Below are positions 16,584 through 58,194 of a stretch of DNA of 64,000 bases, in pieces. Source of the DNA: an uncultured bacterium (lineage in GTDB: Bacteria > Patescibacteriota > Minisyncoccia > Minisyncoccales > RBG-13-42-11). Numbering within the stretch: position 1 is the first letter of the stretch; every line of letters begins with the position of its first letter. The notes beneath the pieces were generated by a model. That model made no database searches. It was not told the origin of the DNA and saw only the letters and a program-made list of their open reading frames with translations. The stretch is taken from contig CAWBPO010000001.1 of NCBI GenBank assembly GCA_963790795.1, positions 38,675 through 102,674 on the forward strand, given 5' to 3'. The position numbers and the translations under genes are program-made.

Positions 16584-16595
16584 TTTATAATAGCT

Positions 16596-19420: not shown

Positions 19421-19424
19421 TCAA

Positions 19425-20090: not shown

Positions 20091-20095
20091 CCGAT

Positions 20096-20848: not shown

Positions 20849-20850
20849 CG
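20828..20850. repeat. REP-like hairpin, family A (gtGTTGAGGA-gag-TCCTCAACgg) in tnpA 5' leader
   Basis: 8-bp stem. Confidence 0.6.
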
Positions 20851-20865
20851 GATTCTCTCAGTCCT

Positions 20866-21504: not shown

Positions 21505-21757
21505 AAATAATTGAGGCCAAGCGGCGAGCCCCCGGTCTCATTTCGCTTGCTCTGGTTTTTGCCAAAACTTCGCGGACTGCTTCTTTGCCATAGTTTTGCT
21601 TAAGCCAACGCCAGTGTTTAAGGTCTCCGTAATTGATTACATTAATAATAACAGTTTTTTTGTTTTTCTCCGGATTTAACTTATCTAAATCGTATGACCA
21701 TAAAATTGGCTTAAAATAATCTGGCAATTTTTTATTCATATGTTTATATTTTACCAT
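21461..21757 (-). CDS. small basic protein, putative cognate partner/antitoxin of the AbiEii-like NTase
   Basis: 98 aa, overlaps downstream NTase gene by 44 nt (translational coupling); no family recognised. Confidence 0.3.
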   Translation of the reverse strand: MVKYKHMNKKLPDYFKPILWSYDLDKLNPEKNKKTVIINVINYGDLKHWRWLKQNYGKEAVREVLAKTRASEMRPGARRLASIIFDINRFNYASRSTN

Positions 21758-21837
21758 AAAATTACGGTATTTTCCACGCTGTTCATGTCTCTTTCATCCC
21801 TTGTCGGTTGAAGTTAGACTTCAACCGATTTCAACTA

Positions 21838-22938
21838 TTATTGTTCGAGTGGCTGGCATTCGCCAATGATTTCGCAGCCATTAGACATATCGCTGTCGCA
21901 ATCGGAAAAGCCATCAGCGCAAGTGAAATTGCAACTTCCCTCCTGGCAAGCGCCTGTGGCATTTTGAGCTGAACAAAGATTTCCTGTAGCGTCTTGTGAT
22001 TCTATTGGTTTTTCTTCGTCGGTACCGCAATTGTTTGAGTCAGTGCAGGTTCTAGTCTGGGTGAAATTCCCGCCACAGGCAACGGTTTCGGGTAAAGGCT
22101 CCCATCCAGTGTAAGACCAATCAGGGACGCAAGCTGGTGCTTCTGGCTCAGCATTACAACTTTCGTTGTACCAAAAACCTGCAGCAGTTTCACATTCAGC
22201 TTGGCTCGTACATAGATTCAAATGAGTTGCATCACAAACATCCTCGGCTGGTGGTGACGCTGTTTCACAAACACCACCTTCGTCTATTTGGCCATCGCAA
22301 TTATTGTCTATTCCATCGCAGATTTCATCGGCAGGAGTACAAGCTAAAGTTTCTGGTTCGGCATTACAGGTTTCGTTGTACCAATATCCGCTATTACTTT
22401 CACAATCAGTTTGAGTTAAACAAAGATTTAAATTATTGGCGTCGCATGATGGTTCTGGTGCTGGTGCTATTTCACATTCCCCTTTTGCCTTCACCCATTC
22501 ACCGTTTTCAATCCAGGTGCAATAGATTTCACCAGTGGCTTGATCACGCATCTCTAATTTATCAAGTTGAGCCACTTCGGCAATTAGTTTCTTCACTCCA
22601 ACAATTCCGTTTTCAATAAATAATCCCAACTTCTTCAAACTATTTTTAATTGTCAAGGTAAATTGGTCAAGAATTGTCGGTTGCTCATCTTCGGTAGAAA
22701 TAGCTTCTCCCTCGGTTGTGGTAAGCGAGCCGTCCTCGGCTAATGAGCCAAGGGACCAGTGAGGATTGATAAAGACTAAAATTTTACCGGTTTCGTTTTC
22801 AATGGGCTGGCAAGTTTCAATTTCTTCAGTTTCACCCGTCTCCTCGTTTTTAACAGACTCTGTTTCGCATTGAGTCTTGGTATTGTTAAACGACTCCAAA
22901 GCAATTCCAATTACTCTTCCTGCTTCTGTCGATTTCAT
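21838..22938 (-). CDS. C-terminal segment of giant fibre/adhesin protein: end of tail-fibre-type C-terminal domain plus Cys-rich repeats with CDGIDNNCDG metal-binding-like motif
   Basis: Begins mid-domain (SQPGVAMKSTEAGRVIGIALESF); upstream parts of same domain lie in two other frames (22945-23373); repeated LNLC.SQ.EC...G.WYNE.CNAEPE modules. Confidence 0.55.
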   Translation of the reverse strand: MKSTEAGRVIGIALESFNNTKTQCETESVKNEETGETEEIETCQPIENETGKILVFINPHWSLGSLAEDGSLTTTEGEAISTEDEQPTILDQFTLTIKNSLKKLGLFIENGIVGVKKLIAEVAQLDKLEMRDQATGEIYCTWIENGEWVKAKGECEIAPAPEPSCDANNLNLCLTQTDCESNSGYWYNETCNAEPETLACTPADEICDGIDNNCDGQIDEGGVCETASPPAEDVCDATHLNLCTSQAECETAAGFWYNESCNAEPEAPACVPDWSYTGWEPLPETVACGGNFTQTRTCTDSNNCGTDEEKPIESQDATGNLCSAQNATGACQEGSCNFTCADGFSDCDSDMSNGCEIIGECQPLEQ

Positions 22939-23130
22939 TGCCACTCCTGGTTGAGAAAAGTTAAAACATCGCCAACCTGAATTGGCCCATTTTCGGTTGA
23001 CACTTTAACTGGTACCCGACCGCTTAAAGTAACTGGTACCTGAATTTCATTTAAAAATTGAGATTTATCCGTTTTAAATCCTCCCAGAAGAACGGCTGGC
23101 TCGGTGGAAATAACACGAGAAGTTTTGAAT

Positions 23131-23660
23131 CTAAGACGAAGAAGATCGTTTAATAAATATAGGATTCTCTTCGTCTAAGGCGACCACCTCGCCGGCCCCC
23201 AATGTTGTGTCTTTGGTTGGATAATTTTCAGCCACATCATAGATAGACATAGCTACTGCGTGAGAATAAACGTATCCTTCTATGTTATTGTCTATGTTGC
23301 AGTTGTCATCGCTTCCAACACATAATCCGCCGCCTGTAACTTGAAAGTCTCGCTTCTGGCGCCGTAGTCCCAATTCCTACGTTGTCGCCAGACGGTCACC
23401 TCCTTGAACACTGAGGCTGAATAGAGACGAAAACTCATCGGCAACGGCAAATTTAAGAGTTCCGTAGTTATAATAAGTGAACTAATCCTGGCAAAGCCAT
23501 CATAACCTATAGCGAGGGAGGTGTAAAGTCCTACATTACCTGATGAATCAACGGTGGTGATATTCTTGGCTGAGCAGTCACCGTTGGCACACTTGAAACT
23601 TGAGGTTAGCGATTTCGTCCTCATCCCAATAAGCGTAACTAATCCTCGCAAAGCCATCAT
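23131..23660 (-). CDS. fragments (ORFs 23131..23373, 23292..23660) of fibre protein: last FVQCTNDDCST-type repeats and start of tail-fibre C-terminal domain (GEVVALDEENP), frameshifted
   Basis: Overlapping ORFs in different frames; domain continues in a third frame (TSRVISTEPAVLLGGFKTDKSQFLNEIQVPVTLSGRVPVKVSTENGPIQVGDVLTF) then into 21838..22938. Confidence 0.45.
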
Positions 23661-23663
23661 CAG

Positions 23664-24239
23664 CTATAGCGAGGGAGGTGTAAGATCCACCTGCTGAGTC
23701 AACGGTGGTGATGTTTTTGGTTGAACAGTCATCATTGGTGCACTGGACGAATTTGAGGACGTAGTTTTCCTCGTCGCATTATAATAAGTGTAACTAATCC
23801 TGGCAAAGCCGTCAGAACCCAGAGCTAAGTATCCCCTTACATCACCCGCTGAGTCAACAGTGGTGATGTTCTTTGTTGAGCAGTCATCATTGGTGCACTG
23901 GACGAATTTGAGTTCGTTGGTTTCATTATCATAATAACTAATCCTGGCAAAGCCATCATCAGGGCTGATGGCGAGAGAGGTGTATTGACCTACATCACTT
24001 GTTGAGTCAACGGTGGTAGCGTTGTTGGTTGAACAGTCATCATTGGTGCACTGGACGAATTTGAGGTCGTTGGTTTCATCTTCAAAGTCAAGATAAGTGT
24101 AACTAATCCTGGCAAAGCCATCATAAGCTATGGCGAGAGAGGAGTTAAACACCCAACCTGAGTCAACAGTGGTAGCGTTGTTGGTTGAACAGTCATCGTT
24201 GGTGCACTGGACGAACTTGAGGTTATAGACGTCCTCCAC
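23664..24239 (-). CDS. fragment of fibre protein with four ~40-aa FVQCTNDDCST.N.TTVDS repeats; C-terminal 30 aa are out-of-frame read-through
   Basis: Repeat unit ...LKFVQCTNDDCSTNNATTVDS..DVGQYTSLAISPDDGFARISYYD; tail SSAPMMTVQPKTSPPLTQQ is the characteristic wrong-frame reading of the next module. Confidence 0.5.
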   Translation of the reverse strand: MEDVYNLKFVQCTNDDCSTNNATTVDSGWVFNSSLAIAYDGFARISYTYLDFEDETNDLKFVQCTNDDCSTNNATTVDSTSDVGQYTSLAISPDDGFARISYYDNETNELKFVQCTNDDCSTKNITTVDSAGDVRGYLALGSDGFARISYTYYNATRKTTSSNSSSAPMMTVQPKTSPPLTQQVDLTPPSL

Positions 24240-24283
24240 CTCATCCCAATAAATGTAACTAATCCTGGCAAAGCCATCATTAG

Positions 24284-26419
24284 CTATGGCGAGAGAGGTG
24301 CATTCACCAAATACACCACCTGTTGAGTCAACGGTGGTAGTGCTGTTGGTTGAGCAGTCAGCATTGGTGCACTGGACAATTTGAGGTCTTCGTTGGTACC
24401 ATCATAATAACTAATCCTGGCAAAACCATCATCAGCTATGGCGAGAGAGTTGTAGTACCCCACATCACCTGATGAGTCAACAGTGGTTTTCTGCCAAGAA
24501 GAAGTGAAGGTAGTGAGGATGTTTGAAGAATCTTCTCCGATTAAGACGCTGTTTCCAAATTTGGCGCTTTGGTTAACGAGAAGTGAGCCATCAGTAATAA
24601 TGTTACCTTCAACCCCAAGAGAACCGGCTACAAATAAGTCATTGCCATCGGGGTTGAAGGAAATATCATTAGTAAATCGGGCAAATTTGAGGTTGGCGTT
24701 TTGTTCCACATAATCATATTCAAAATAACTAATCCTGGCAAAGCCATCTGAACCTATAGCGAGAGAGGTGTATTCACCAAATACACCACCTGTTGAGTCA
24801 ACGGTGGTAGTGCTGTTGGTTGAGCAGTCATCATTGGTGCACTGGACCAATTTGAGTTCGCCGTTGGTATCATCATAGTAACTAATCCTGGCAAAGCCAT
24901 CATCAGCTATGGCGAGAGAGGAGCCATTCCCACCCGTTGAGTCAACAGTGGTAGCGTTCTTGGTTGAGCAGTCATCGTTGGTGCACTGGACGAATTGGAG
25001 GTTTCCGTTGTCATAATCATAATAACTAATCCTGGCAAAGCCATCATCAGCTATAGCGAGAGAGTTGTAGTACCCCACATCACCTGCTGAGTCAACAGTG
25101 GTAGTGCTGTTGGTTGAGCAGTCATCGTTGGTGCACTGGACGAACTTGAGGTTAGAGATTTCCTCCACCTCATCCCAATAAGCGTAACTAATCCTGGCAA
25201 AGCCATCATCAGCTATAGCGAGAGAGTTGTAGTACCCCACATCACCTGCTGAGTCAACAGTGGTAGTGCTGTTGGTTGAGCAGTCATCATTGGTGCACTG
25301 GACGAATTGGAGGTTTCCGTTGTCATAATCATAATAACTAATCCTGGCAAAGCCATCATCAGCTATAGCGAGAGAGATATCTTCTACCCAATTACCTGTT
25401 GGGTCAACAATGGTAGCGTTCTTGGTTGAGCAGTCATCATTGGTGCATTGGACGAATTGGAGGGAGCTGTTGTAAGTATTATAATAACTAATCCTGGCAA
25501 AACCATCTGAACCCATAGCGAGGGAGGTGTAAGGTCCTACATTACCTGATGAATCAACGGTGGTGATACTTTTGGTTGAGCAGTCATCATTGGTGCACTG
25601 GACGAATTGGAGGTTTTCGTTGGTATCATCATAGTAACTAATCCTGGCAAAGCCATCATCAGCTATGGCGAGAGAGGGAGGGATGTCTGCCGTACTATCT
25701 ACTGAGTCAACAGTGGTAATAAAAATTGACGAGACAGAACTGGTAACTGTATTAATATTTCCGCCAATGAAGACATTGCCGGAGGTATCCAAAACCAGGA
25801 CTTTTTCATTGGACCCAATTTGAAACTGAATTGGTCTTATTTCCCCAGTGCCACTGGCTGAAGTAGAAATGGTTAAAGCATCTCCTCCAGAAGAATCATA
25901 GTTAATAGTTATTTGACTAAGAGAAGGACTGCTGCTCGTGGAAGTAGTCTTTAGTCCGCCAGTAAAATCTAAAGTATCAACCGAAATTGACCAGCCGCCA
26001 GTCGCTTCCCAATTGACATCGGAAATATTGTTAAAGTTAGCTCCTGACATTAGATTAGCTGAAATCCCGAAAGCCTGGTCTAAAGCTCTCTCTTGGGAAT
26101 TGACTGAGGCGGCGGTCCAGGTTTCTTGAGAATAGGTCGCATTGGAGTTGTATTTCCAAGTTCCAGAATCATTTTTGGCTATGCTTCTCCACTGGGATTG
26201 ACCTAAACCAAAGACCTTCCAGATAGTTCTATCATCAAAAGAAACGGCATAATAAATGGTTTGAGAATTTAAAGTTTCGGTAATGGCTCCTGAAATTATA
26301 TTTAGCCAGCTGGAAGTATCGATTTGATTACTGTCAGTAGTTGAGAGAATATAATATTCATCGGAAGGATAAATTTCAGTGCCCGTGATTCCCAGACCAC
26401 GGCATTGCTGTAATCCCAA
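24284..26419 (-). CDS. fragment of fibre protein: beta-rich N-part, GIGTT-type linker, ~12 FVQCTNDDCST 40-aa repeats
   Basis: 711 aa; same frame as upstream ORF 26438..27472, separated only by TAG at 26438-26440. Confidence 0.55.
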   Translation of the reverse strand: MGLQQCRGLGITGTEIYPSDEYYILSTTDSNQIDTSSWLNIISGAITETLNSQTIYYAVSFDDRTIWKVFGLGQSQWRSIAKNDSGTWKYNSNATYSQETWTAASVNSQERALDQAFGISANLMSGANFNNISDVNWEATGGWSISVDTLDFTGGLKTTSTSSSPSLSQITINYDSSGGDALTISTSASGTGEIRPIQFQIGSNEKVLVLDTSGNVFIGGNINTVTSSVSSIFITTVDSVDSTADIPPSLAIADDGFARISYYDDTNENLQFVQCTNDDCSTKSITTVDSSGNVGPYTSLAMGSDGFARISYYNTYNSSLQFVQCTNDDCSTKNATIVDPTGNWVEDISLAIADDGFARISYYDYDNGNLQFVQCTNDDCSTNSTTTVDSAGDVGYYNSLAIADDGFARISYAYWDEVEEISNLKFVQCTNDDCSTNSTTTVDSAGDVGYYNSLAIADDGFARISYYDYDNGNLQFVQCTNDDCSTKNATTVDSTGGNGSSLAIADDGFARISYYDDTNGELKLVQCTNDDCSTNSTTTVDSTGGVFGEYTSLAIGSDGFARISYFEYDYVEQNANLKFARFTNDISFNPDGNDLFVAGSLGVEGNIITDGSLLVNQSAKFGNSVLIGEDSSNILTTFTSSWQKTTVDSSGDVGYYNSLAIADDGFARISYYDGTNEDLKLSSAPMLTAQPTALPPLTQQVVYLVNAPLSP

Positions 26420-26437
26420 CCAGCCGCTACGTATTTG

Positions 26438-27472
26438 CTATGGTTGAGTCGTAGATGATGGAATAGATCGATTGGTTACGACTCCGGTGTCAACGTTTCG
26501 CTGGGTCCAGGAGGTTAAATCGGTTGATTCCCAGACCACGGCATAGTTGCCATCATTATACGAATCATAATGACTACCAGCAACTACATATTTGCTATTG
26601 GTTGAGTCGTAGACGATAGAAATCCAACCATCGGTATAAGCTTCGATATCAACGTCTCTTTGGATCCAGGAGGTTAAATCAGTTGATTCCCAGACTACGA
26701 CACCCCAATTATCAATGCCAGCAGCTACATATTTGCCATTGGTTGAGTCATAGATGATGGAATCAATACATTGGTCATCAACAACTTCGGTATCAACGTT
26801 TCTCTGGGTCCAGGAGATTAAATCATCAATTGATTCCCAGACTACGGCATAATAGCTAGTAGCATTCTCATCAATGCCAGCCGCTACATATTTGCTATGA
26901 GTTGAGTCATAGATGATGGAATTAATCCATTGCTCATCAACTCCGGTATCAACGTTTCTTTGGATCCAGGAGATTAAATCAGTTGATTCCCAAACTACGG
27001 CATCACAAAAGCTTCCCGCTTCAACATAATGATCATGCCCTCCGGCTACATATTTTCCATTAGTTGAGTCATAGATGATGGAATTAATCCATTGGTTATC
27101 AGCTCCGGTATCAACATTTCTTTGGATCCAGGAAATTAAATCAGTTGATTCCCAGACTACGGCGTCAGAGCCAGTACCATAATCAGCACCAGCCGCTACA
27201 TATTTGCTATGGGTTGAGTCATAGATGATAGAATTAATCCATTGGTCATTAGCTCCGGTATCAACGTCTCTCCGGATCCAGGTTTGGAGGTCGGCTGATT
27301 CCCAGACTTCGGCATCGTAGTCAGTAGTATCCTCAGCACCAGCAGCTACATATTTGCTATGAGTTGAGTCATAGATGATAGAATTAATCCATTGGTCACC
27401 AGCTCCGGTATCAACGTTTCTCTGGGTCCAGGAGGTTAAGTCACTAGAAGAATAACTATTTAATTCAACCAC
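26438..27472 (-). CDS. fragment of fibre protein: ~8 copies of a 40-aa repeat (VVWESTDLISWIQRNVDTG..QWINSIIYDSTNGKYVAAG)
   Basis: Tandem degenerate repeats; ends at in-frame TAG aligned with the conserved Tyr of the repeat (..NSKYVV.. vs ..TQP*QI..). Confidence 0.5.
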   Translation of the reverse strand: MVELNSYSSSDLTSWTQRNVDTGAGDQWINSIIYDSTHSKYVAAGAEDTTDYDAEVWESADLQTWIRRDVDTGANDQWINSIIYDSTHSKYVAAGADYGTGSDAVVWESTDLISWIQRNVDTGADNQWINSIIYDSTNGKYVAGGHDHYVEAGSFCDAVVWESTDLISWIQRNVDTGVDEQWINSIIYDSTHSKYVAAGIDENATSYYAVVWESIDDLISWTQRNVDTEVVDDQCIDSIIYDSTNGKYVAAGIDNWGVVVWESTDLTSWIQRDVDIEAYTDGWISIVYDSTNSKYVVAGSHYDSYNDGNYAVVWESTDLTSWTQRNVDTGVVTNRSIPSSTTQP

Positions 27473-27538
27473 TCCGCTGTTGAATTTAGTGCAATAAATA
27501 TTATTAATACTGCCAGAAGCAGAAGGAGTGCCAGAAAC

Positions 27539-28504
27539 CTAAAAGTGAGTAGTATCAGCAACCGAGCTGATATCGTAAAAAGTGCCAGCTAATTTGGCTC
27601 GGCAGCCAACTTTTACTTTTAAAGACATGGCAGCATTTAAAGTAACTGCTGAACCTGAGGCAGTGTAGGTAGTGGCTGAACCCTTTAATTCTTCTTGTTG
27701 GAAATTGGATTCATCAGCTTCATCAAAGTCAAGTGAGTTATTAGAATTAAGAAGTGGATAGGGATTAAGAGTAAATTGACTCAATTCATAATTTGAGGGG
27801 TCAGTATATGAACCATACATTTTGATTGAGGCTGACCCTAAGTAAAGATCTCTCCAGAGGTTAGTGGCTGAACCTAAATCATAAGTATTGTCAGTCATCG
27901 GTAGAAAATTACCTTCTAAACTCAAATCACCATTATTAGCTAAGTTTAAAACAGTGCCAGTGGCATTTTTAAACTCAGCAATATTGCCTGATCCGTCCTG
28001 TCTGGCAGAAAGAACAGTATCGCTTGTGGTGGCATAAACATCCAAGATTGCCGTCGGCTCTGTCGTCCCGATGCCGACGTTGCCAGCAGGGTTTAAAATA
28101 ATATTACCAGCAACAGTAGAAAGTGTCGTTGATGTTGAACCTGAAATGGTGTCTTTATTTATAGTTATGGTTTCTCCAATTGTTGCTGTGGCAGCATATA
28201 TATTTGCCCATTTATATTCTGAAGAACCTAAATTATAAACAGTTGTCGTAGAAGGCAACAGATTTCCTGTCAGAATCGTATTGCCGGCATTATTTACGGT
28301 AAAAACAGTACTAGTGGCGTTTTTGAATTCAACAACACTGCCTGTGCTTGCCTGGGTGACGGTTAGAGCTGAGGTGTTTGTGGCAGAGGTGGAGGAAGCG
28401 TAAACGCTGACCAATCCTTCTGAATATATTCCTCCTACACCTGCATTGATTCCGTTTTGGACGTAAAGATTGTTGTTGATTATGGCGTTGTCATTGACCA
28501 TCAT
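27539..28504 (-). CDS. fragment of fibre protein: Thr/Ser/Asn-rich beta-fibre segment with GNVGIGTTEP tail-fibre motif
   Basis: 321 aa, low-complexity T/S/N/G beta-strand-like sequence; abuts 28501..29583. Confidence 0.45.
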   Translation of the reverse strand: MMVNDNAIINNNLYVQNGINAGVGGIYSEGLVSVYASSTSATNTSALTVTQASTGSVVEFKNATSTVFTVNNAGNTILTGNLLPSTTTVYNLGSSEYKWANIYAATATIGETITINKDTISGSTSTTLSTVAGNIILNPAGNVGIGTTEPTAILDVYATTSDTVLSARQDGSGNIAEFKNATGTVLNLANNGDLSLEGNFLPMTDNTYDLGSATNLWRDLYLGSASIKMYGSYTDPSNYELSQFTLNPYPLLNSNNSLDFDEADESNFQQEELKGSATTYTASGSAVTLNAAMSLKVKVGCRAKLAGTFYDISSVADTTHF

Positions 28505-29583
28505 GGTGTCTGGTTGAGAGACCCGGCAAAGAGATTGGGGGTTTCAATACCGCCGATGTCCACGATGGCAAGGTTACTAGACAACTCTCCCGCCACATAG
28601 ACGTACTTGCCGAAGACATAAACTGAAGGAGCACCATTCATCACGTTTGTATCGTTAGGATCCCAGTTGCCAACAAGAGTAGGGCTGGCAGGGCTGCTGA
28701 TATCAACGATAGCAAGGTTGCTGGAGTCACGTCCCGCTACATAAGCATATTTACCAGAGACATAGACAGAAAAAGCGTTATTCATCACGTTTGCATCATT
28801 GGGATCCCAGTTGCCTGTGGTGGTGGGGGTAGCAGGATTGCTAATATCCACAATCGCAAGGTTGTCAGATCCAGCTCCTGTCACATAAGCGTACTTGCCG
28901 GAGACATAGACTGATACGGCTTCATTCATCACGTTTGCATCATTGGGATCCCAGTTGCCAATAGTTGTGGGGTTGGCAGGATTGCTGATGTCCACAATTG
29001 CAAGGTTGCTAGAAAAATCTCCCGCCACATAGGCGTACTTGCCTGAAACATAAACTGAAGAAGCACCATTCATCACGTTCGTATCATTGGGATCCCAGTT
29101 GCCAATAGTTGTGGGGCTGGCAGGATTGCTGATATCCACAATTGCAAGGTTGTCGGAATCTTCTCCTGCCACATAGGCGTACTTGCCTGAAACGTAGACT
29201 GAATAAGCGCCATACATCACGTTCGTATCATTGGGATCCCAGTTGCCAATAGTTGTGGGGCTGGCAGGATTGCTGATATCCACAATTGCAAGGTTGCTAG
29301 AGACATATCCCGCCACATAGGCGTATTTGCCGGAGATATAAACTGAATGAGCACCATTCATCACGTTTGTATCGTTAGGATCCCAATTGCCCGTGGTGGT
29401 AGGGCTGGCAGGATTGCTGATATCCACAATCGCAAGGTTGTCGGAGCCATCTCCCGCCACATAGGCGTACTTGCCAGAGACATAAACAGAAACGGCGTAT
29501 TGCATCACATTCGTATCATCGGGGTACCAGTTACCCTTTAGAACAAGTTGAACCGCCGTCAACCCGAAGATCACCAACCACAT
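28501..29583 (-). CDS. fragment of fibre protein: 8 tandem ~40-aa LVIVD-like repeats (GNWDPNDTNVMNGA.SVYVSGKYAYVAG..S.NLAIVDISNPASPTT)
   Basis: Near-perfect 120-bp periodicity; NLAIVDISNP core resembles LVIVD beta-propeller repeats. Confidence 0.55.
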   Translation of the reverse strand: MWLVIFGLTAVQLVLKGNWYPDDTNVMQYAVSVYVSGKYAYVAGDGSDNLAIVDISNPASPTTTGNWDPNDTNVMNGAHSVYISGKYAYVAGYVSSNLAIVDISNPASPTTIGNWDPNDTNVMYGAYSVYVSGKYAYVAGEDSDNLAIVDISNPASPTTIGNWDPNDTNVMNGASSVYVSGKYAYVAGDFSSNLAIVDISNPANPTTIGNWDPNDANVMNEAVSVYVSGKYAYVTGAGSDNLAIVDISNPATPTTTGNWDPNDANVMNNAFSVYVSGKYAYVAGRDSSNLAIVDISSPASPTLVGNWDPNDTNVMNGAPSVYVFGKYVYVAGELSSNLAIVDIGGIETPNLFAGSLNQTP

Positions 29584-30293: not shown

Positions 30294-30800
30294 CAGGTCG
30301 CCGTCACTCTGATTGTAATAAGAGATAATTGGCAGGCCGTCAGTGCCAATGGCAATGGAAGTGAACCACCGACGTTATCACCATCGCTAATCTGGGTGGT
30401 GGTATTTCCTGAAGAACAGGCAGAGTTTCCGCATTTGGTAATCATCAGGTCGCCGTCGGTGGAATTTCCATAAGAGATAATTGGCAGGCCGTCGTTTCCT
30501 ATGGCAATGGAAGTATCATAGCCAATAATATCAGTATCAGTAATCTGGGTGGTGGTATTTCCTGAAGAACAGGCAGAGTTTCCGCATTTGGTAATCATCA
30601 GGTCGGTGTCGTCATCATTTCCATAAGAGATAATTGGCAGGCCGTCGTTTCCTATGGCAATGGAATTATCATCGCCAACACTATCATCATCGCTAATCTG
30701 GGTGGTGGTATTTCCTGAAGAACAGGCAGAGTTTCCGCATTTGGTAATCATCAGGTCACCGTCGGTGAAATTGTAATGAGAAATAATCGGCAGGCTGTCA
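29600..30800. repeat. ~8 near-identical 150-bp tandem DNA repeats (coding 50-aa Cys repeats)
   Basis: repeated ...ggcagagtttccgcatttggtaatcatcaggtcgccgtc...; one unit is 1 nt short (~30361-30382) causing the ORF break. Confidence 0.7.
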
Positions 30801-32896
30801 GTGCCAATGGCAATGGAAGTACCAGAGCCAACACTATCAGTATCGCTAATCTGGGTGTTTGTTCGGGTAGTTGCGGTAATGGACGGAGCAAAAGTTGGAA
30901 GAATATTTCCTGAAACAATATCGCCTGAAACCGTTAATTTGGCAATCGGGTTGGTCGTCCCGATGCCAACGTTGCCAAGGGGTATATAAGAATCGGCTGA
31001 TGAGATGTAAATATAGTTGCCATCTGTAACCGCTGTCTGGATTTTGCCGTCGCTGGACATTGCAACGCCAAGCCAGGAGCTTGTCGCGCCTTTGGCTGTC
31101 CAGGTGTTACCGTAGTCAGTGGACAGATAAATCTGGCCTCCTGATACAGCTGCTGTCTGGATTTTGCCGTCAGAGGACATGGCCACGCCAGTCCAGTTTC
31201 TCTCCTCGTCTTTGGCTGTCCAGGTATTGCCGTAGTCAGTGGAAAGGTAGATGTAGCCGTTGTTGAAGGGAACCGCTGTCTGGACTTTGCCATCGCTGGA
31301 CATGGCTATGCCAGCCCACCCATCTTCAGGATCCCCCTTGGCTGTCCAGGTATTGCCGTAGTCAGTGGAAACATAAATGTAAACCGGTGCTTCTATAAAT
31401 CCTCTACCTACTGTCTGGTATTTACCGTCCGAAGACATGGCAATTCCCCACCACCTCTGAATACTTCCTTTTGGTGTCCAGGTATTACCATAGTCAGTGG
31501 AAACATAAATGTAATCATCTTCACCACTATAAGCTGTTGCTGTCTGGTATTTACCGTCGCTGGACATAGCTACGTCATACCAGTTTCTCTCGGCGTCTTT
31601 GGCTGTCCAGGTATTGCCGTAGTCAGTGGAAACATAAACATAGTCGGCATCTGCAATCGCTGTCTGGATTTTGCCGTCAGAGGACATGGCCACGCCAGTC
31701 CAAGCTCTCATATCGTCTTTTGTCTCCCAGGTATTGCCGTAGTCAGTGGAAAGGTAAATATAGTCTCCATCTGCAACTGCTGTCTGGATTTTGCCGCCAG
31801 AGGACATGGCCACGCCAGTCCAGCCTCTTTCCTCGTCTTTGGCTGTCCAGGTATTGCCGTAATTAGATAATCCCCACTGGTTCTCTTCCACTCCTACCCT
31901 GCCAAAATACATCCCTCCTTCCAAACTTGACAGCAAAACATTGTCTGTTGAGAGATAGCCGGCATTCAGCGTTGAAGATAAATCGCCGGCAACAGTAAGT
32001 TTTTGGCCTGGCTCCGTTGTCCCGATGCCGACATTGCCATCAGAATCAATTGTTAAAAAGTCATTTGTTCCGAAAGCGCTAGAACCTGAAATTTTGAAGT
32101 TATGGTCATCGCTTTGACCAAGGGTCCAATTTGAACTACCAGAATAATAAACTTTTACTTGGAGAGAATCTACTATATCTACGAGTGCTCCAATAGTGCC
32201 ACTATCAAATCGGATTCTAAAGTTGGCGTTTGAAAACTCTTCCTGAGTCCAGCTTCTTCCCCAGGTATCAGTTGATCCGCCTAAAGTTACGGTATCCCAT
32301 TCTGGATCTTCCAATGTCGTTGAGGCTTGTTTCACATCAGTTTCGTAAGTATTCCCACCGTCATGGGAAAGGTCTACATAAATAGTATTATGACTTGGAG
32401 GTTGACTGGCTACATATTCCCGCGTATTATACTCTGTCTGATATGCATTGTGTTCTTCATCATCAGGATAATGTTCTAAAGACGTATCATACGGGTATTG
32501 TGACATGCCATGAAAGGGCAAAGGATCAATAGTATCGCCCACAAAGCCCTGAACACTGTATTTTATGCTATACATCACGTCTGCCAGTAAAAAGACATGT
32601 CTATCTTGGCCTTCATTTTTGGGGATGTCATTAAACTCTAAACTCAATTCATCCCCGTGGCGCATAATGGCATACTCATCATCTGTTTGGTCAAGAAGGG
32701 GCAGGACGTCGCCATATTTTGTAAAGTTTCCATACATAAGAAAGTTTTCTCTGTTGGGTAATTGTTCATCCGTAACATTAATATGTCTGTGGTCTACTGT
32801 TGCGTATTGATAATTTGTTGACCCGCCCCAGTGCAGGTCGGCATAAGAGGGGCTAACATAGGTTACATTGACTTCAACAGGTTCGGAATCATCCAA
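30293..32896 (-). CDS. fragment of fibre protein: N-terminal globular region, ~10 BNR/Asp-box-like repeats (YIYLSTDYGNTWTAKD...W.GVAMSSDGKIQTA), GIGTT motifs, then 50-aa Cys repeats
   Basis: 867 aa; S.DYGNTW repeats every ~40 aa; ORF terminates inside a 150-bp DNA repeat (frameshift ~30361-30382); likely true start further upstream (~33043, after a frameshift near the T8 run at 32962-32969). Confidence 0.55.
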   Translation of the reverse strand: MDDSEPVEVNVTYVSPSYADLHWGGSTNYQYATVDHRHINVTDEQLPNRENFLMYGNFTKYGDVLPLLDQTDDEYAIMRHGDELSLEFNDIPKNEGQDRHVFLLADVMYSIKYSVQGFVGDTIDPLPFHGMSQYPYDTSLEHYPDDEEHNAYQTEYNTREYVASQPPSHNTIYVDLSHDGGNTYETDVKQASTTLEDPEWDTVTLGGSTDTWGRSWTQEEFSNANFRIRFDSGTIGALVDIVDSLQVKVYYSGSSNWTLGQSDDHNFKISGSSAFGTNDFLTIDSDGNVGIGTTEPGQKLTVAGDLSSTLNAGYLSTDNVLLSSLEGGMYFGRVGVEENQWGLSNYGNTWTAKDEERGWTGVAMSSGGKIQTAVADGDYIYLSTDYGNTWETKDDMRAWTGVAMSSDGKIQTAIADADYVYVSTDYGNTWTAKDAERNWYDVAMSSDGKYQTATAYSGEDDYIYVSTDYGNTWTPKGSIQRWWGIAMSSDGKYQTVGRGFIEAPVYIYVSTDYGNTWTAKGDPEDGWAGIAMSSDGKVQTAVPFNNGYIYLSTDYGNTWTAKDEERNWTGVAMSSDGKIQTAAVSGGQIYLSTDYGNTWTAKGATSSWLGVAMSSDGKIQTAVTDGNYIYISSADSYIPLGNVGIGTTNPIAKLTVSGDIVSGNILPTFAPSITATTRTNTQISDTDSVGSGTSIAIGTDSLPIISHYNFTDGDLMITKCGNSACSSGNTTTQISDDDSVGDDNSIAIGNDGLPIISYGNDDDTDLMITKCGNSACSSGNTTTQITDTDIIGYDTSIAIGNDGLPIISYGNSTDGDLMITKCGNSACSSGNTTTQISDGDNVGGSLPLPLALTACQLSLITIRVTAT

Positions 32897-33284
32897 TAAT
32901 ATCTGGTCAATGATGTATTGTTGTTTGTGAATAAGGTGCTGTAACCCTCATCTTTGTATTATTTTTTTTCAGAATATCGGAAATATCAAAGACAAAAGTC
33001 TTGGAATCACCCGCAAAATTACCGAATTTTTCTGGCCCACCTGCCATGCTCATTTTCCTCTGTTTCTATAAGAAGATAATTATGGGTCGATAGTCCCGGG
33101 TTAAGCTCATAAGATGCCAGCCAGTAATTATCAATTTTGCATATTGCGGGTTGTCGATATTCCCAAAGTCAAATGTTATTGATTCATAGTTTCTTTAAGG
33201 GTATTCCATCTTTTTTAAAAACTTGTAATAACATTATTTCCATAACTATCTGTTGCTGCAATGGCACAATTGGATTCTTTATTG

Positions 33285-34064
33285 TCATAAACTCCTTGGA
33301 CGGCGCTGCTTCAATGAGTAGGTGTAACTCCATGGGTTCAAGACACCATATCCTTCAGGAACATCAACCAAAACTAACTTTGCCTCGTCAAAAAAGTCTG
33401 ATTCTGGGATGACTTCTCTTACTTTTAGATTATAAACCCCATCTATAGCTTCGAAATCTCCAAATTCATATATTCCAGCTTCATATATATGTGGTTCAAA
33501 CCAGGAGCCGCCAAACGATTCACCGGCAAAATCTGTATAATAATTATAACTAGGTTCCATCCTAAATATAAATAAGGACAAGACCCAATGTCCGGCTCTG
33601 CACATCACTAATTTTGCTTCTATACCATCGATGCTTGCTCCAGAGGGAAAATTAAACGAGAAATCGTAAAAATCTTGCTGATCGTCGTTAAAGGGAGAAA
33701 AGGCAGAATCCATCTTCAGTATAAACATATCGGGGTAAGACCAATTATTATAGTAATCCCCAACTGCTGTTGAAGATTTAAAGCCAGTTGTATAAATTGC
33801 AGATGTCTCAAGTAGAATAGCTACGTCATTTGTTCTATAAAGGTGTAAAGCTTGGTCCGGCTTCGTCGTCCCAATGCCGACGTTGTCACCAAAGTAGGCA
33901 CCTCCTTGAACAGAGAGTTTGGCATCGCTATCAATTACCGCCAAGTTATTAAAACCATCTGAAGTGAAATAAAATTGAGGAGCAGTCAAGATGCCGCTCT
34001 TTAGTTCAAGCGAATCACCTATAGTCAGACTGCCGTCGGTGAAAATATTGTTTTTTACTCCCAA
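33285..34064 (-). CDS. C-terminal segment of upstream giant protein (34217..38413): linker module GSLGVKNNIFTDGSLTIG plus GIGTT motif and C-terminal globular domain
   Basis: N-terminus matches the internal linker module of 34217..38413 (FVAGFLGIEGDIITDGSLLVNQSAKFGNSVLIG); joined to it by frameshift at ~34290-34296. Confidence 0.5.
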   Translation of the reverse strand: MGVKNNIFTDGSLTIGDSLELKSGILTAPQFYFTSDGFNNLAVIDSDAKLSVQGGAYFGDNVGIGTTKPDQALHLYRTNDVAILLETSAIYTTGFKSSTAVGDYYNNWSYPDMFILKMDSAFSPFNDDQQDFYDFSFNFPSGASIDGIEAKLVMCRAGHWVLSLFIFRMEPSYNYYTDFAGESFGGSWFEPHIYEAGIYEFGDFEAIDGVYNLKVREVIPESDFFDEAKLVLVDVPEGYGVLNPWSYTYSLKQRRPRSL

Positions 34065-34216
34065 ACTTCCATTAAGAAAAAGTGAGGACTGGCTGAGGTT
34101 AAATGATGACGAGAACTCACCGCCAACGGCGAACTTGAGGTCGCCGTTGGTACCATCATAATAACTAATCCTGGCAAAGCCATCATCAGGGCTGATGGCG
34201 AGAGAGGTGTCATATC

Positions 34217-37200
34217 CTACATCGCCTGCTGAGTCAACGGTGGTGATGTTCTTGGTTGAGCAGTCATCATTGGTGCACTGAACGAATTTGAGCTAGCGAT
34301 TTCGTCCTCATCATAATAAGTGTAACTAATCCTGGCGTAGCCATCATCAGGGCTGATAGCGAGAGAGGTGAATTCGCCTACATAACCTGCTGAATCAACA
34401 GTGGTGATGTTCTTGGTTGAGCAGTCATCATTGGTGCACTGAACGAATTTGAGGTCTTCGTTGTTTTCATCAAAGTAACTAATCCTGGCAAAGCCGTCAG
34501 AGCCAAGAGCCAAGGAGGTGTAGAGCCCTACATTACCTGAGTCAACAATGGTAATGTTCTTGGTTGAACAATCATCATTGGTGCACTGAACGAATTTGAG
34601 GTCGCCACCGGAATGATCAAAATAACTAATCCTAGCAAAACCGTCGTCAGGGTTGATGGCGAGAGAGGTTTGTGTACCTACATTACCTGTGTCAACAGTG
34701 GTAATGTTCTTGGTTGAGCAGTCATCATTGGTGCACTGAACGAATTTGAGGTTTTCGTTGGTACCATCATAATAACTAATCCTGGCAAAGCCGTCGTCAG
34801 GGTTGATGGCGAGAGAGGTGTATTCGCCTACATAACCTGCTGAGTCAACGGTGGTGATGTTCTTGGTTGAGCAGTCATCATTGGTGCACTGAACGAATTT
34901 GAGGTAGCCGTTGTCACCCTCATAATAACTAATCCTGGCAAAGCCGTCGTCAGGGTTGATGGCGAGAGAGGTGTATTCGCCTACATAACCTGCTGAATCA
35001 ACAGTGGTGATGTTCTTGGTTGAGCAGTCATCATTGGTGCACTGGACGAATTTGAGGTCGCCGTTGGTGTCATCCTGATAACTAATCCTGGCGTAGCCAT
35101 CATCGGGGCTGATAGCGAGAGAGGTATAGTAACCTACCTCACCTGTTGAGTCAACAGTGGTTCTCTGCCAGGAAGAAGTGAGGGTAGTGAGGATGTTTGA
35201 ATAATCTCCCCCGATTAAAACGCTGTTTCCAAATTTGGCGCTTTGATTAACAAGAAGTGAACCATCAGTAATAATATCTCCTTCAATCCCAAGAAAACCG
35301 GCTACAAATAAGTCATTGTTATCGGGGTTGAAGGAAATATCACTAAGTCGGGCGAATTTAAGGTCGTAGTTACTATTATTATAGTAACTAATCCTAGCGT
35401 AACCATCATCAGGGCTGATGGCGAGAGAGGTGTCATGTCCTACATCACCTGCTGAGTCAACGGTGGTGATGCTCTTGGTTGAGCAGTCATCATTGGTGCA
35501 CTGGACGAATTTGAGGTCGCCGTTGCCATCATCATAATAACTAATCCTAGCATAGCCATCATCAGGGCTGATGGCGAGAGAGGTGAATTCGCCTACATAA
35601 CCTGCTGAATCAACAGTGGTGATGTTCTTGGTTGAGCAGTCATTATTGGTGCACTGGACGAATTTGAGGTCGTAGTTGTCATAATCACAATAACTAATCC
35701 TGGCAAATCCGTCAGAACCAAGAGCCAAGGAGGGAAAGGGCCCTACAAAACCTGCTGAATCAACAGTGGTGATGTTATTTTCTGAGCAGTCAGCATTGGT
35801 ACATTGGACGAATTTAAGGTCATTACTACTACTATCATAATAACTAATCCTGGCAAGGTTTTCAGAATCTAAAGCTAAGGAGGTGCCCCCTAGAGAAACA
35901 GAATCAACGGTGGTGATGTTCTTGGTTGAGCAGTCATCATTGGTGCACTGGACGAATTTAAGGTCGTAGTTACTATTATCATAGTAACTAATCCTGGCAA
36001 AGCCGTCAGAACCCAGAGCTATTGAGGTATAGCTTCCTACTAAACCAGCTGAGTCAACGGTGGTGATGCTCTTGGTTGAGCAGTCATCGTTGGTGCACTG
36101 GACGAATTTGAGGGCACTATTGCTAAGATCATAGTAACTAATCCTGGCATAGCCGTCGTCAGGGCTGATGGCGAGAGAGGTGTATTCGCCTACATCACCT
36201 GCTGAGTCAACGGTGGTGATGTTCTTGGTTGAGCAGTCATCATTGGTGCACTGGACGAATTTGAGGTCTTCGTTGTCATAATCACAATAACTAATCCTGG
36301 CAAATCCGTCAGAACCTAAAGCTAAGGAGGTGTCTCTCCCTACATCACCTGCTGAATCAACAGTGGTGGTAAAAATTGGCGAAGCGGAACTGGTAATTGT
36401 ATTGCTGTTCCCGCCGAGAAAAGTATTACCTATAACTGTAAGTTTCTCCGCCGGCTCCGTCGTCCCGATGCCGATATTTGTTCCTAATTGGTAGATAGTT
36501 GATGTGCCAAGGGCGGTGTCAGAAGTCCAGAGAGGAAGATAATTTGTTTGTCCTCCAGAAATTGTTGGAGCTGTAGTTGTTCCCCAGACGCCCGCATCAA
36601 TATACGGAACACCTGTCCAGGAGATAGTGCTTGTTCCTGTGCCGCCGTAGGCTGAGCCAATTGCCGTACCTTTCCAAACGCCCGTGGTGATGTCGCCGTT
36701 GTTGGCAATGGTGAAGATGCTGCTTGTGGCGTTGCTGAAATTGGCAATTGTTCCTGTTTCAGACTGGATAACGGTTAGGGCTGTGTTAGCGGAAGCGGCT
36801 TTAATGTTGAAAATATATTCTTCGGTGGCGCCGGCACCGGTTCTGTTGCCGTAAATAACCGTCCCTGTCCCCGAATTATTGAAAGAACCCGTGCCGAAGT
36901 CGTCGTCATAAATGTCATTATTGACAACCAAATTTCCGTCAGACGCGGCATCAGAAATATTAATCCCGTAGCGCGGCACGTTAGCCAACGCCCCGGCCCG
37001 ACAGGTGTTACCCTGAATGTTATTGTGGTCCGATTCAGATAGGTAAATATCATCATAAGTATTATCAGTGTCTTGTGAATTTTCGGTTAAGGTATTGTCA
37101 GAGATAGTGTTGTTATCGCTAGTGTAAAGGTAAATTCCGTATGAGCCATTCTCCTGACATGTGTTGCCTAAGATGGTGTTGTTGTTGGAGGTGTCCTCAA

Positions 37201-38413
37201 TGTCAATGCAAATATCGCCATTCCCCTGGCTGGTGTTGCCTGAGATGGTGTTGTTGTTGGAGGTGTGAAGTTCAATACCAGCACTACTGTTCCCCTGGCT
37301 GGTGTTGCCTGAGATGGTATTGTTGTCGGAGGCATAAATTGTAATGCCATTTTCATTCCCCTGGCAAGTATTGCCTGAGATGATGTTGTTGTCGGAGGTG
37401 TCAAGTGCAATGCCGTCGCCATTCCCCTGGCTGGTGTTGCCTATTAACGTGTTGTTGTTGGAGGCGTTAAGATTAATACCACTACCATTTTCCTGGCAGG
37501 TATTACCTATTAGCGTATTAAAATCTGAAAGTTCAAGATAGATACCATCCCAGTAGCCGTCAGATGGTGCCTGGTTTCTTCTTGAATGCACATTCTGGAT
37601 AAAACTGTAGTCTACATATGAAAATAATATACTGGCGTCGCTTAAATAAGAGGTGCCGCCGTCTAATTGAAGGTCGGTTATGATTATCCCTGTTTTTTCC
37701 GTACCGGCTCCGCCTACAGCGCTTAAAAATATAAGACCATCGGTTGAGGTAGTGAGGATGGTATTTCTGCCGTCTCCTCTGAGAGTTTGGTTAGAATCTA
37801 AATTAATAGTGGCTTCAACGTTGTAAGTTCCATCAAGGAGGCGGACTTCTCCGCCAGTAGCCGGCAAAGCGTCAATCGCCGCTTGTATCTGTACATGGTC
37901 GTCTACGCCATCACAGACATAATCTGCTTTTTCTTTGTTCTGAGAATCATTAGCTGCTACAATCTTTGTCACCACCGTTCTGTCTGCCTGCCATTTACTG
38001 CTATCAAAAATATAAAGCTGGTGAGTACTGGTGCTGAAAAACATCTGGCCTTCAGCAGCAGTAGAGGTAGCTGGTAAGGTTCCAGCGCCAGTTAATCTAA
38101 GCCATTTGTCAGCCGCTAAAGTAACATTGCCTACGATACTGACATTTCCTCCATCTGCAATAGTAAAGACTGGGGTTCCAGCATCTTTGAATTCTACAAT
38201 GTTGCCATTTCCTGATTGATTGACGGTTAGGGCGGCAGCAGTTGAAGAAATTGAAATTTCTTTCTTTTCTTCTAATTTTACTGTGGCAGTATCTAATTCA
38301 TAATAAAAATTGGCGGCAAAAACCAAACCAGCCACGACTATTCCTGGCAAAATAGCTAAAACAACCCTTTTCCAGGTTTTTTCCCTGTTTAGTTTTAACC
38401 TCCAATTAAACAT
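34217..38413 (-). CDS. giant signal-anchored surface fibre protein: N-terminal TM anchor (FAANFYY), right-handed parallel beta-helix (PbH1) repeats, GIGTTEP motif, >25 FVQCTNDDCST 40-aa repeats
   Basis: 1398 aa; PbH1-like NNTISGNTSQGNG.GI repeats; last 25 aa (SSNSFSAPMMTAQPRTSPPLTQQAM) are an out-of-frame reading. Confidence 0.65.
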   Translation of the reverse strand: MFNWRLKLNREKTWKRVVLAILPGIVVAGLVFAANFYYELDTATVKLEEKKEISISSTAAALTVNQSGNGNIVEFKDAGTPVFTIADGGNVSIVGNVTLAADKWLRLTGAGTLPATSTAAEGQMFFSTSTHQLYIFDSSKWQADRTVVTKIVAANDSQNKEKADYVCDGVDDHVQIQAAIDALPATGGEVRLLDGTYNVEATINLDSNQTLRGDGRNTILTTSTDGLIFLSAVGGAGTEKTGIIITDLQLDGGTSYLSDASILFSYVDYSFIQNVHSRRNQAPSDGYWDGIYLELSDFNTLIGNTCQENGSGINLNASNNNTLIGNTSQGNGDGIALDTSDNNIISGNTCQGNENGITIYASDNNTISGNTSQGNSSAGIELHTSNNNTISGNTSQGNGDICIDIEDTSNNNTILGNTCQENGSYGIYLYTSDNNTISDNTLTENSQDTDNTYDDIYLSESDHNNIQGNTCRAGALANVPRYGINISDAASDGNLVVNNDIYDDDFGTGSFNNSGTGTVIYGNRTGAGATEEYIFNIKAASANTALTVIQSETGTIANFSNATSSIFTIANNGDITTGVWKGTAIGSAYGGTGTSTISWTGVPYIDAGVWGTTTAPTISGGQTNYLPLWTSDTALGTSTIYQLGTNIGIGTTEPAEKLTVIGNTFLGGNSNTITSSASPIFTTTVDSAGDVGRDTSLALGSDGFARISYCDYDNEDLKFVQCTNDDCSTKNITTVDSAGDVGEYTSLAISPDDGYARISYYDLSNSALKFVQCTNDDCSTKSITTVDSAGLVGSYTSIALGSDGFARISYYDNSNYDLKFVQCTNDDCSTKNITTVDSVSLGGTSLALDSENLARISYYDSSSNDLKFVQCTNADCSENNITTVDSAGFVGPFPSLALGSDGFARISYCDYDNYDLKFVQCTNNDCSTKNITTVDSAGYVGEFTSLAISPDDGYARISYYDDGNGDLKFVQCTNDDCSTKSITTVDSAGDVGHDTSLAISPDDGYARISYYNNSNYDLKFARLSDISFNPDNNDLFVAGFLGIEGDIITDGSLLVNQSAKFGNSVLIGGDYSNILTTLTSSWQRTTVDSTGEVGYYTSLAISPDDGYARISYQDDTNGDLKFVQCTNDDCSTKNITTVDSAGYVGEYTSLAINPDDGFARISYYEGDNGYLKFVQCTNDDCSTKNITTVDSAGYVGEYTSLAINPDDGFARISYYDGTNENLKFVQCTNDDCSTKNITTVDTGNVGTQTSLAINPDDGFARISYFDHSGGDLKFVQCTNDDCSTKNITIVDSGNVGLYTSLALGSDGFARISYFDENNEDLKFVQCTNDDCSTKNITTVDSAGYVGEFTSLAISPDDGYARISYTYYDEDEIASSNSFSAPMMTAQPRTSPPLTQQAM

Positions 38414-44141: not shown

Positions 44142-44157
44142 AAAAGAGAGTGCCTAA

Positions 44158-44299: not shown

Positions 44300-45710
<1,411 letters not shown>

Positions 45711-45711
45711 A

Positions 45712-56045: not shown

Positions 56046-56486
<441 letters not shown>

Positions 56487-58127: not shown

Positions 58128-58194
58128 AATATATGTCATATATATTATATAATAAAAAAGGCCCATTTCGGAGAGGGGTCGGGAGAACCTACCA

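Follow-up and report, generated by a model that had tools for sequence, protein, structure and literature searches.

A chain of open reading frames in a Patescibacteria genome is probably one giant surface-fibre gene broken by consensus errors

The window analysed here is a stretch of 64,000 nucleotides from an uncultured bacterium of the Patescibacteria (Candidate Phyla Radiation, CPR; GenBank assembly GCA_963790795.1, contig CAWBPO010000001.1). On its minus strand, from position 38413 to position 21838, lies a chain of 12-13 open reading frames (ORFs) of at least 60 aa (80-1,398 aa) that is spread over all three frames. This chain is very probably a single gene, split by consensus errors, for a membrane-anchored cell-surface fibre or adhesin of ~5,530 residues. 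The giant gene runs from the ATG at 38413-38411 to the TAA at 21840-21838 and holds ~5,530 codons once repaired. The first-pass annotation of this DNA had proposed one giant mosaic fibre or adhesin gene that is read as at least 12 ORFs through frameshifts, and this proposal is supported by the stop-free frame that was obtained when two assemblies were merged.

One reading frame over 16.6 kb

The ORF boundaries of the chain cut through domains and repeats. A stop-to-stop map of the three frames revealed that the tail of each ORF is a repeat read out of frame, and in the three-frame translation meaningful protein resumes in another frame a few bases past each ORF end. The tail ...EIASSNSFSAPMMTAQPRTSPPLTQQAM that ends ORF 34217..38413 is an example. 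The first-pass annotation had taken this tail (SSNSFSAPMM...) for the FVQCTNDDCS repeat read in a wrong frame, and this was confirmed: a base is missing at 34292, and the true continuation is found in frame 2. Two further claims of the same kind were borne out. The 150-nt TKCGN unit at ~30365 is one base short, ORF 30293..32896 goes out of frame there and ORF 29571..30293 resumes the repeat; the C-terminal domain is split over three frames, with lesions at 23344, 23131, 23115, and 22957. The more general statement that the breaks lie inside repeat units applied to about half of the lesions and failed for the rest, many of which are outside repeats (33314-32916 and 23393-22957). The public record of the 538,786-bp contig carries the fragments as separate genes, with exact protein matches in NCBI and ENA to P0241 (from an internal ATG), P0363, P0365, P0366, and P0373. 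ComM belongs to a 90% identity cluster labelled Candidatus Pacebacteria/Paceibacterota, in keeping with a Paceibacterota-like CPR bacterium of very small genome. This division of the giant gene is probably wrong.

The comparison sequence was contig_56475 of ENA ERZ25039515 (21,488 bp), an independent public assembly of a close relative, which was reached via the protein P0361 (472 aa), a member of the 90% cluster of P0241. It aligns to window positions 38152..19423 with 93.5% identity and 131 gap openings, and to 19369..16594 with 86.7% identity. At every break of the window, contig_56475 has the frame-preserving state. The two sequences were merged with a dynamic programme run on the alignment, in which the state of either assembly was allowed only where they differ, departures from the window were charged, and in-frame stops were heavily penalised. 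The merge that prefers the window contained no stop over 5,443 codons, taking 22 indel events and 1 substitution from contig_56475, and the 87 upstream codons bring the total to 5,530 aa from the ATG at 38413. Correction of the indels and a new ORF call, as proposed in the first-pass annotation, therefore gave one frame of 5,530 aa that is open over 16.6 kb, with no stop between any two modules. As a control, an equal number of indel differences was placed randomly in 100 trials, and the best path then kept 9-34 stops (mean 19).

In the converse direction, the repair of contig_56475 drew on the window for 50 indel events and 9 substitutions, and not one of these coincides with a lesion of the window. 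The dprA and comM genes are split in contig_56475 and intact in the window. The protein P0361 crosses three of the window frameshifts uninterrupted (...SSSSYDSKLLGVISTEP...GDVLTSSSQPGVAMK...). The frame path 0 > 1 > 2 > 0 (23344-22957), which was derived from the three-frame translation, agrees with P0361 (uninterrupted across 23131-22957), and the repaired C-terminus is covered 99-100% by more distant homologues. The single open frame, the absence of overlap between the lesions of the two assemblies, and the broken essential genes of the window described below are direct observations.

The start of the gene differs from the starts of its fragments. The sole hydrophobic N-terminal anchor in the 16.6 kb is found at 38371-38309, and the 22 nt upstream of 38413 have an A+T content of 82% and a TATA-like box. 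Since Shine-Dalgarno sites are nearly absent from the genome and are thus uninformative for the fragment starts, the AT-richness of the upstream region was used instead: it averages 74% at real starts of the window versus 54% at the fragment "starts" (Mann-Whitney p = 0.002). The genes of the window (for example those starting at 1704, 40436, 54850, and 38413) have near-absent Shine-Dalgarno sites and very AT-rich upstream regions, often with TATAAT ~8-12 nt before the start codon, a pattern that is compatible with short-leader or leaderless transcripts.

The divergence between window 38152-16594 and contig_56475 is a mosaic. Mismatches are at 0-2% over much of 32000-21841, with pockets up to 12%, and reach 7-16% in 38150-32500, up to 23% near the AbiEii and DUF6922 genes, and 13% in the dprA-comM stretch. 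The central and C-terminal 10 kb of the giant gene are thus mostly 98-100% identical between two populations whose housekeeping genes are only ~87% identical. The mosaic suggests either that related populations recently exchanged the core of the fibre gene or that the consensus is chimeric.

Consensus errors or real mutations

At least 22 indels and 1 nonsense codon were counted on the minus strand of the giant gene, the exact number being about 22-26 given alternative frame paths. In the direction of transcription, one base is missing at 34292 (at the EIA-NLKFVQC junction), and a cluster follows at 32916..33314 with lesions at 33314 (-1), 33187 (+1), 33116 (-1), 33032 (+1), and 32916 (-2); this cluster falls where the two assemblies diverge most (16% mismatch). 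One G is missing at 30365, within a TKCGN blade. Near a GIGTT motif at 29547..29690 the minimal repair uses 29626 (+1) and 29547 (-2); the canonical motif ERLTITPSGNVGIGTT is in frame 1, and the true path may instead go via a shift near 29690. The assembly comparison placed a missing G at 28512. The in-frame TAG at 27539..27541 is GAG (Glu) in contig_56475, with the substitution at 27541. Three single-base deletions (26480, 26442, and 26385) lie in the last blade of the WES propeller (26385..26480), and a C is missing at 24377 in AAATT[C]GTCCAG (DLKFVQC). Nine lesions are assigned to 22957..23772, where the positions recorded are 23772 (-1), 23596 (-2), 23479 (-1), 23393 (-1), 23344 (+1, in a T run), 23131 (-1), 23115 (-1), and 22957 (-4). 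Most lesions are single-base deletions in ordinary sequence, and the contexts of all 22 indels contained no long homopolymer or microsatellite (homopolymers of at most ~4-5 nt). Their distribution is clustered: the first 4.1 kb are free of lesions, the final 0.9 kb of the lesion-bearing part has nine, and lesion-free gaps of 4,121, 2,551, 2,032, and 2,008 nt contrast with runs spaced 16-200 nt. The repeat blades retain 70-90% identity to their consensus.

In all likelihood the 22 indels and the TAG are consensus errors of the deposited assembly. They carry the single-base indel signature of long-read assemblies and would stem from long reads combined with strain mixing. Polishing would fail most in repeats and at positions where co-occurring strains differ, and this would concentrate the lesions at such places. 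The number of mismatches within ±20 nt is 3.05 at lesions versus 1.45, and only 0.25% of 2,000 random draws were as high; lesions are expected to adjoin strain-variable positions if a single consensus was built from reads of co-occurring strains. Truncation of giant genes by single-base indels has been described for long-read assemblies (West-Roberts et al. 2023, bioRxiv 10.1101/2023.11.21.568195).

Essential genes of the window are broken in the same manner. The rpoB gene is divided into ORFs 12267..13970 and 10721..12340 by a single-base insertion within an invariant motif. With one base removed, no gap is needed to align the junction to solved RpoB chains (residues 589-681 of 8x6f_C, for example), so that the public record almost certainly has an assembly error here. 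The ligA gene is stopped by a TGA at 56487-56489 (ORFs 56487..58238 and 56049..56486), the HhH and BRCT domains continue beyond it, matching E. coli LigA 462-669, and the canonical YFG motif is found in the neighbouring frame (window 56440-56560). This suggests two compensating indels within ~25 nt in a locally garbled consensus. In Pfam searches RpoC (1,194 aa), FtsK, RecA, SSB, S6, YchF, FtsW, the ATP synthase subunits, ComM, and DprA were of full length under the standard code. Other public assemblies have similar breaks. The homologous fibre locus of ERZ25039512 contig_68800 (687-11356) is present as same-strand pieces of 1,760, 1,210, and 451 aa, and transketolase is in four pieces in ERZ1286166 contig_3026, whose homologous fibre locus is likewise fragmented. 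The artefact looks systematic for such "contig_N" assemblies.

Several points weigh against consensus errors as the origin of the breaks, and some of them would fit real pseudogenisation, that is, an adhesin decaying here and independently in the related strain, with some or all of the 23 lesions being true mutations. The lesion density is ~1.4/kb in the gene, with 2-3 lesions in the other 47 kb (~25 times lower), so an extra assumption is needed, namely that polishing failed in repeats and in strain-variable DNA. About half of the lesions are in stretches with no second copy in the window. All lesions were judged from assembled sequence, by comparison with a related strain that is 93.5% identical overall and 7-16% divergent in the first 5.6 kb. 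The minimal-cost repair may also be out of frame for a few dozen codons (~29690-29626 and 33314-33032). Moreover, CPR genomes are reduced and their adhesin repertoires turn over. A fixed or ancient pseudogene would share lesions with close relatives, however, and no lesion is shared among the 23 of the window and the 59 of contig_56475. In near-identical aligned bins (<~1% mismatch; 4,650 bases) we counted 19 mismatches and 18 indel columns. Natural divergence leaves roughly ten or more substitutions per indel, so a ratio of ~1:1 where the assemblies are nearly identical, some ten times or more the natural one, points to consensus noise. Only 1 nonsense codon accompanies the 22 indels, the repeat units are well preserved, the lesion-free first 4.1 kb are unexpected under uniform neutral decay, and the essential rpoB and ligA bear the same type of lesion. 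Decay of the gene is accordingly improbable, although it keeps a small share of the probability.

It is highly improbable that the fragments are a row of separate modular genes, each translated independently as publicly annotated. In favour of this reading, the beta-helix, the Cys propeller, and the C-terminal domain have homologues elsewhere that are stand-alone proteins of 400-650 aa, and the fragments were called as genes in the public record. Nevertheless, their boundaries slice propeller blades and the chaperone domain, their tails are repeats read out of frame, they lack signal peptides or anchors of their own, their upstream regions are coding-like in AT content, and the repaired frame is free of stops between all modules. 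Just as little credence can be given to a phase-variable contingency locus switched by slippage, or to recoding by programmed frameshifts or by UGA read as an amino acid. Surface adhesins are often phase-variable, but homopolymers at the lesions do not exceed ~4-5 nt, short tandem repeats are absent there, and 22 independent switches would never all be ON together. The one in-frame TGA in ligA could be taken as a sign of recoding, but the fragments end in TAG, TGA, and TAA alike, all of them out of frame. TGA as a sense codon was ruled out by the other housekeeping genes that were checked, all of full length under the standard code. Mis-joins of short reads at repeats would keep the frame (the units are of 150/153 nt) and would leave rpoB unexplained. 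The stop between 62119..63849 and 60193..62109 was considered as a further lesion and rejected, as the downstream gene has its own signal peptide. Of the two options that the first-pass annotation had left side by side, an assembly-error hotspot hiding a protein of more than 5,000 aa was retained, and a decaying or phase-variable gene was not.

Modules of the repaired protein

The giant protein, taken as one chain broken by consensus errors, begins with the anchor, which is followed by a right-handed beta-helix, a stalk motif, two Cys propellers, a stalk with two domains without family match, and a stalk with a BNR propeller. Its second half continues with a stalk and the TKCGN propeller, a stalk and the LVIVD propeller, a tail-spike-like stalk, the WES propeller, an unassigned domain, two more Cys propellers, a stalk with the C-terminal domain, and finally an acidic linker, a helix, and a Cys-rich tail. 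Eight seven-bladed propellers are predicted, four of them Cys-containing and lectin-like and one each of the BNR, TKCGN, LVIVD, and WES types. All modules are on the minus strand. The family searches that the first-pass annotation had called for (Pfam profiles) matched the beta-helix, BNR, and LVIVD modules.

The hydrophobic membrane anchor (WKRVVLAILPGIVVAGLVFAANFYY) was located by translation at 38309..38371, and its FAAN.YY signature is common to the neighbouring gene 38553..40436. The right-handed parallel beta-helix (PbH1) at 36734..37966 matches Pfam Beta_helix PF13229 (E 6.3e-39, 133.6 bits) and NosD PF05048 (E 4.2e-34, 118.3 bits). Its homologues are mostly stand-alone proteins of 400-600 aa and have no bearing on the giant architecture. 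A scan of genome contigs with the N-terminal 1,373 aa returned only relatives of the beta-helix (in Saccharibacteria, Omnitrophota, and other metagenome-assembled genomes) and no giant orthologue.

Cys propeller 1, with the blade LKFVQCTNDDCSTKNITTVDSAGDVG.YTSLAI..DGFARISYYD, occupies 35354..36388. The structure prediction that had been suggested for the Cys repeat gave a seven-bladed propeller of 28 strands (AlphaFold2; pLDDT 95, pTM 0.91), whose best Foldseek matches are the Photorhabdus PLL/PHL lectins (TM 0.75-0.80, E 1e-15, 14-16% identity). Cys propeller 2 (34125..35158) was placed with a tblastn blade map and contains the lesion at 34292. Cys propellers 3 and 4 (23480..25720) are paralogous to 36403-34093 (77% DNA identity between the contig and the window paralogues) and are preceded by an unassigned domain at 26390-25730. 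The first-pass annotation had counted more than 35 copies of a 40-aa Cys repeat; this needs correction, as the period is ~50 aa (150 nt) and the copies are 28 blades in four groups of seven together with 7-8 TKCGN blades. No Pfam or NCBIfam model matches the Cys repeat. Among 8,000 candidates scored there were at least 1,596 relatives of the Cys propeller, typically of 400-650 aa and some with pilin-like N-termini, in bacteria and archaea (CPR, Gemmatimonadota, Acidimicrobiia, Altiarchaeota, and Nitrosopumilus). The Cys propeller (35324-36433) has C-x4-C in every blade and would merit a Pfam entry.

A stalk (GDNVGIGTTKP) with two globular domains covers 32050..34125; it contains the lesion cluster 33314-32916, and its repaired 695 aa gave no Pfam hit. 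The BNR/Asp-box propeller (STDYGNTW) at 30976..31879 has six to seven S.D.G.TW motifs and is flanked by GNVGIGTT motifs at ~32035 and ~30950. It scores 42.8 bits with Pfam BNR_6 (cut-off 27) and 35.5 bits with Sortilin-Vps10 (cut-off 33). The TKCGN propeller (TKCGNSACSSGN) at 29760..30860 has 7-8 blades, including the one with the lesion at 30365, and is ~40-45% identical to the consensus of the Cys blade; by its sequence, the TKCGN repeat is a sister family of the Cys repeat. The LVIVD propeller at 28520..29540 is seven-bladed, with seven LAIVDI motifs (Pfam PF08309, E 1.5e-71, 235.9 bits, cut-off 20.2), and SGNVGIGTTSPGKKL precedes it at ~29625-29590. The WES propeller at 26390..27470 has 6-7 blades of the repeat ...VVWES.DL.SW.QRNVDTG...WINSIIYDS...KYVAAG. 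No Pfam or NCBIfam model was found for the WES repeat, for the domains at 34.1-32.0 kb, or for the C-terminal domain. Matches to Ogr_Delta, PyrI_C, zf-RING_5, and KCGN_DNA_rpt were discarded as repeat-driven noise with no single significant stretch.

At least seven GNVGIGTTxP stalk motifs are distributed along the protein. The stalk at 27542..28504 (GNVGIGTTEP) is like those of tail spikes and tail fibres, with matches to PHROGs phrog_1171 (tail spike, E 1.5e-9) and phrog_15695 (tail fibre, E 5.8e-8) and 26.2 bits with Pfam End_tail_spike (cut-off 25). A profile of the C-terminal family matches, via the GNVGIGTT.P motif, five solved fragments of Bdellovibrio MAT proteins: 8ond (Bd2133, E 6.5e-12), 8oml, 8ol4, 8ojn, and 8on4.

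The tail-fibre-type C-terminal domain of the first-pass annotation could be refined to a fold of the phi29 gp12 auto-chaperone type (Peptidase_G2). This candidate auto-chaperone (22745..23238) begins with DVAENYP just after the last GDNVGIGTTAP (~23390-23350). The profile of the homologues matches phi29 gp12 (6qz9, E 1.1e-5; 3gqh, E 1.1e-4), and against the released fragment 3gqh it aligns from residue 1 onwards, with DFAEYFE in gp12 and DVAENYP in the window protein. When aligned to gp12, a putative autocleavage site Y/D falls at ~23241/23238. The Pfam family PF11962 (Peptidase_G2) is matched by 10 of 35 homologues (best E 2.6e-7), and the repaired C-terminus and P0361 gave no match at E <= 0.01. 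Residues 1-170 of P0361 were predicted by AlphaFold2 with pLDDT >90, and confidence is low after residue 270. The Pfam searches gave no match to Peptidase_S74. The C-terminal extension (21841..22745) consists of an acidic linker, a helix, a small beta domain, and a Cys-rich tail with a MopE-like CDGIDNNCDG at ~22332-22279; Cu-binding_MopE scores 25.6 bits there, under the Pfam cut-off of 27.

Related fibres, proposed mode of action and gene surroundings

The closest likeness among known systems is to the MAT fibres of Bdellovibrio bacteriovorus (Bd2133, Bd3182; PMC10769870), also fibres of a bacterium that lives on bacteria. They share the beta-helix stalk motif ...I..SGNVGIGT..P..KL.V and are a mosaic of exchangeable binding modules; many members have a phage-type C-terminal chaperone, as the window protein probably does. 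MAT proteins are of ~1,000 aa with one tip, whereas the window protein of ~5,530 aa has about nine globular modules along its shaft. In MATs the signal peptide is followed by a conserved ~130-aa beta-rich N-terminal domain (Caulton et al. 2024, PMC10769870); the window protein begins with the anchor FAANFYY and then sequence shared with 38553..40436. The MAT chaperone is of the S74 type (SDxxxK), and the candidate chaperone of the window protein is of the gp12/G2 type followed by the Cys-rich tail. In its mode of action the window protein would resemble MAT fibres or phage tail spikes, yet by the criteria of Caulton et al. it falls outside the MAT family, since an S74 domain is lacking, the N-terminus is different, and the binding modules are numerous and internal where a MAT has a single tip.

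The phi29 pre-neck appendage gp12 (MEROPS G2, PF11962) also has a right-handed beta-helix elsewhere in the protein, and the alignment begins at the first residue of its released fragment. On the other hand, gp12 is an 854-aa virion protein, and the window protein stays under the threshold of PF11962. Like the window protein, the giant membrane proteins of Vampirococcus lugosii, a predatory CPR epibiont, and the giants of the Omnitrophota are very large repeat-rich surface proteins of ultrasmall host-dependent bacteria with a presumed role in attachment. The ten longest proteins of Vampirococcus are of 1,392-4,163 aa and contain WD40, TPR, and PKD domains (Moreira et al. 2021, PMC8080830); the window protein is longer and is built on a phage-fibre scaffold. 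The Omnitrophota giants reach 10-85 thousand aa with other domain sets (bioRxiv 10.1101/2023.11.21.568195). The Photorhabdus PLL/PHL lectins share the seven-bladed fold predicted for the Cys propellers but are soluble proteins of ~340 aa with ~15% identity. A literature search that combined Patescibacteria, tail fibre, and intramolecular chaperone returned no description of the architecture of the window protein. The protein joins the already known giant mosaic adhesins of CPR that are built from phage-fibre parts.

These likenesses can be assembled into a model of how the protein might act. The N-terminal hydrophobic segment would anchor it in the membrane, and the stalk segments (...RL.I...GNVGIGTT.P..KL.V), like those of phage tail fibres and of Bdellovibrio MAT fibres, would form a trimeric beta-helical shaft. 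The shaft would be interrupted by globular modules, namely the beta-helix, possibly glycan-binding or glycan-cleaving, and the eight propellers. The four propellers of PLL/PHL fold would provide multivalent binding to glycans of the host cell surface, in line with a putative role in host attachment. The gp12-type C-terminal auto-chaperone would nucleate folding of the trimer and then, by analogy with gp12, cleave itself off at ...SIY|DVAENY..., removing the Cys-rich tail.

Three points count against this model. Trimerisation, autocleavage, and lectin activity are suggested by similarity of fold and motif only; Tyr precedes the putative cleavage Asp, at a position where gp12 and the homologue consensus have Ser; and ~300 residues follow the chaperone domain, which is therefore not at the extreme C-terminus, an unusual situation for such domains. 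We offer as a tentative and rather doubtful proposal that, when intact, the 5,530-aa protein forms a trimeric organelle of host attachment of a "beads-on-a-fibre" kind, with eight propellers (four of them lectin-like) and the beta-helix carried on a phage-tail-fibre shaft and a phi29-type auto-chaperone that is cleaved off. It would be the CPR counterpart of the MAT fibres, take up 3% of a 539-kb genome, and be a host-range determinant that recently moved between CPR lineages; such a transfer is what the high identity of the 10-kb core, set against that of the housekeeping genes, would mean.

Two intact smaller genes lie directly upstream on the minus strand (38553..40436 and 40542..42761). 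Both carry G(I/V)GT stalk motifs and share a C-terminal domain (28% identity, 308 aa), and 40542..42761 matches a PHROGs tail spike/tail fibre family. With the giant gene, they make up a fibre locus of three genes. The giant gene is followed directly downstream, at 20096-21757 on the minus strand, by a DUF6922 gene, an AbiEii-like toxin gene, and a homologue of IS200-like Y1 transposases. The AbiEii ORF covers only the first 46 of 238 profile positions, and the AbiEii/DUF6922 region is the most divergent between the two assemblies. Within the window, GC content is highest in the fibre gene (0.40-0.47) and drops to 0.30-0.35 in the low-GC block 42000-52000, which contains a fragment of an IS1595-like transposase (43416..44141) along with the ATP synthase operon.

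The surprising frameshifts are most likely not biological, and they are a useful warning for the annotation of long-read CPR genomes. One gene annotated as about a dozen, together with the frameshifts in rpoB and ligA, distorts gene counts, pseudogene estimates, and the apparent size of the adhesin repertoire, and the same distortion arises in similar long-read metagenome assemblies precisely at host-interaction genes. The repaired gene, made of phage tail-fibre parts and many lectin-like propellers, is a testable candidate for host binding by a Paceibacterota cell; among characterised systems it comes closest to the fibres with which Bdellovibrio recognises its prey.

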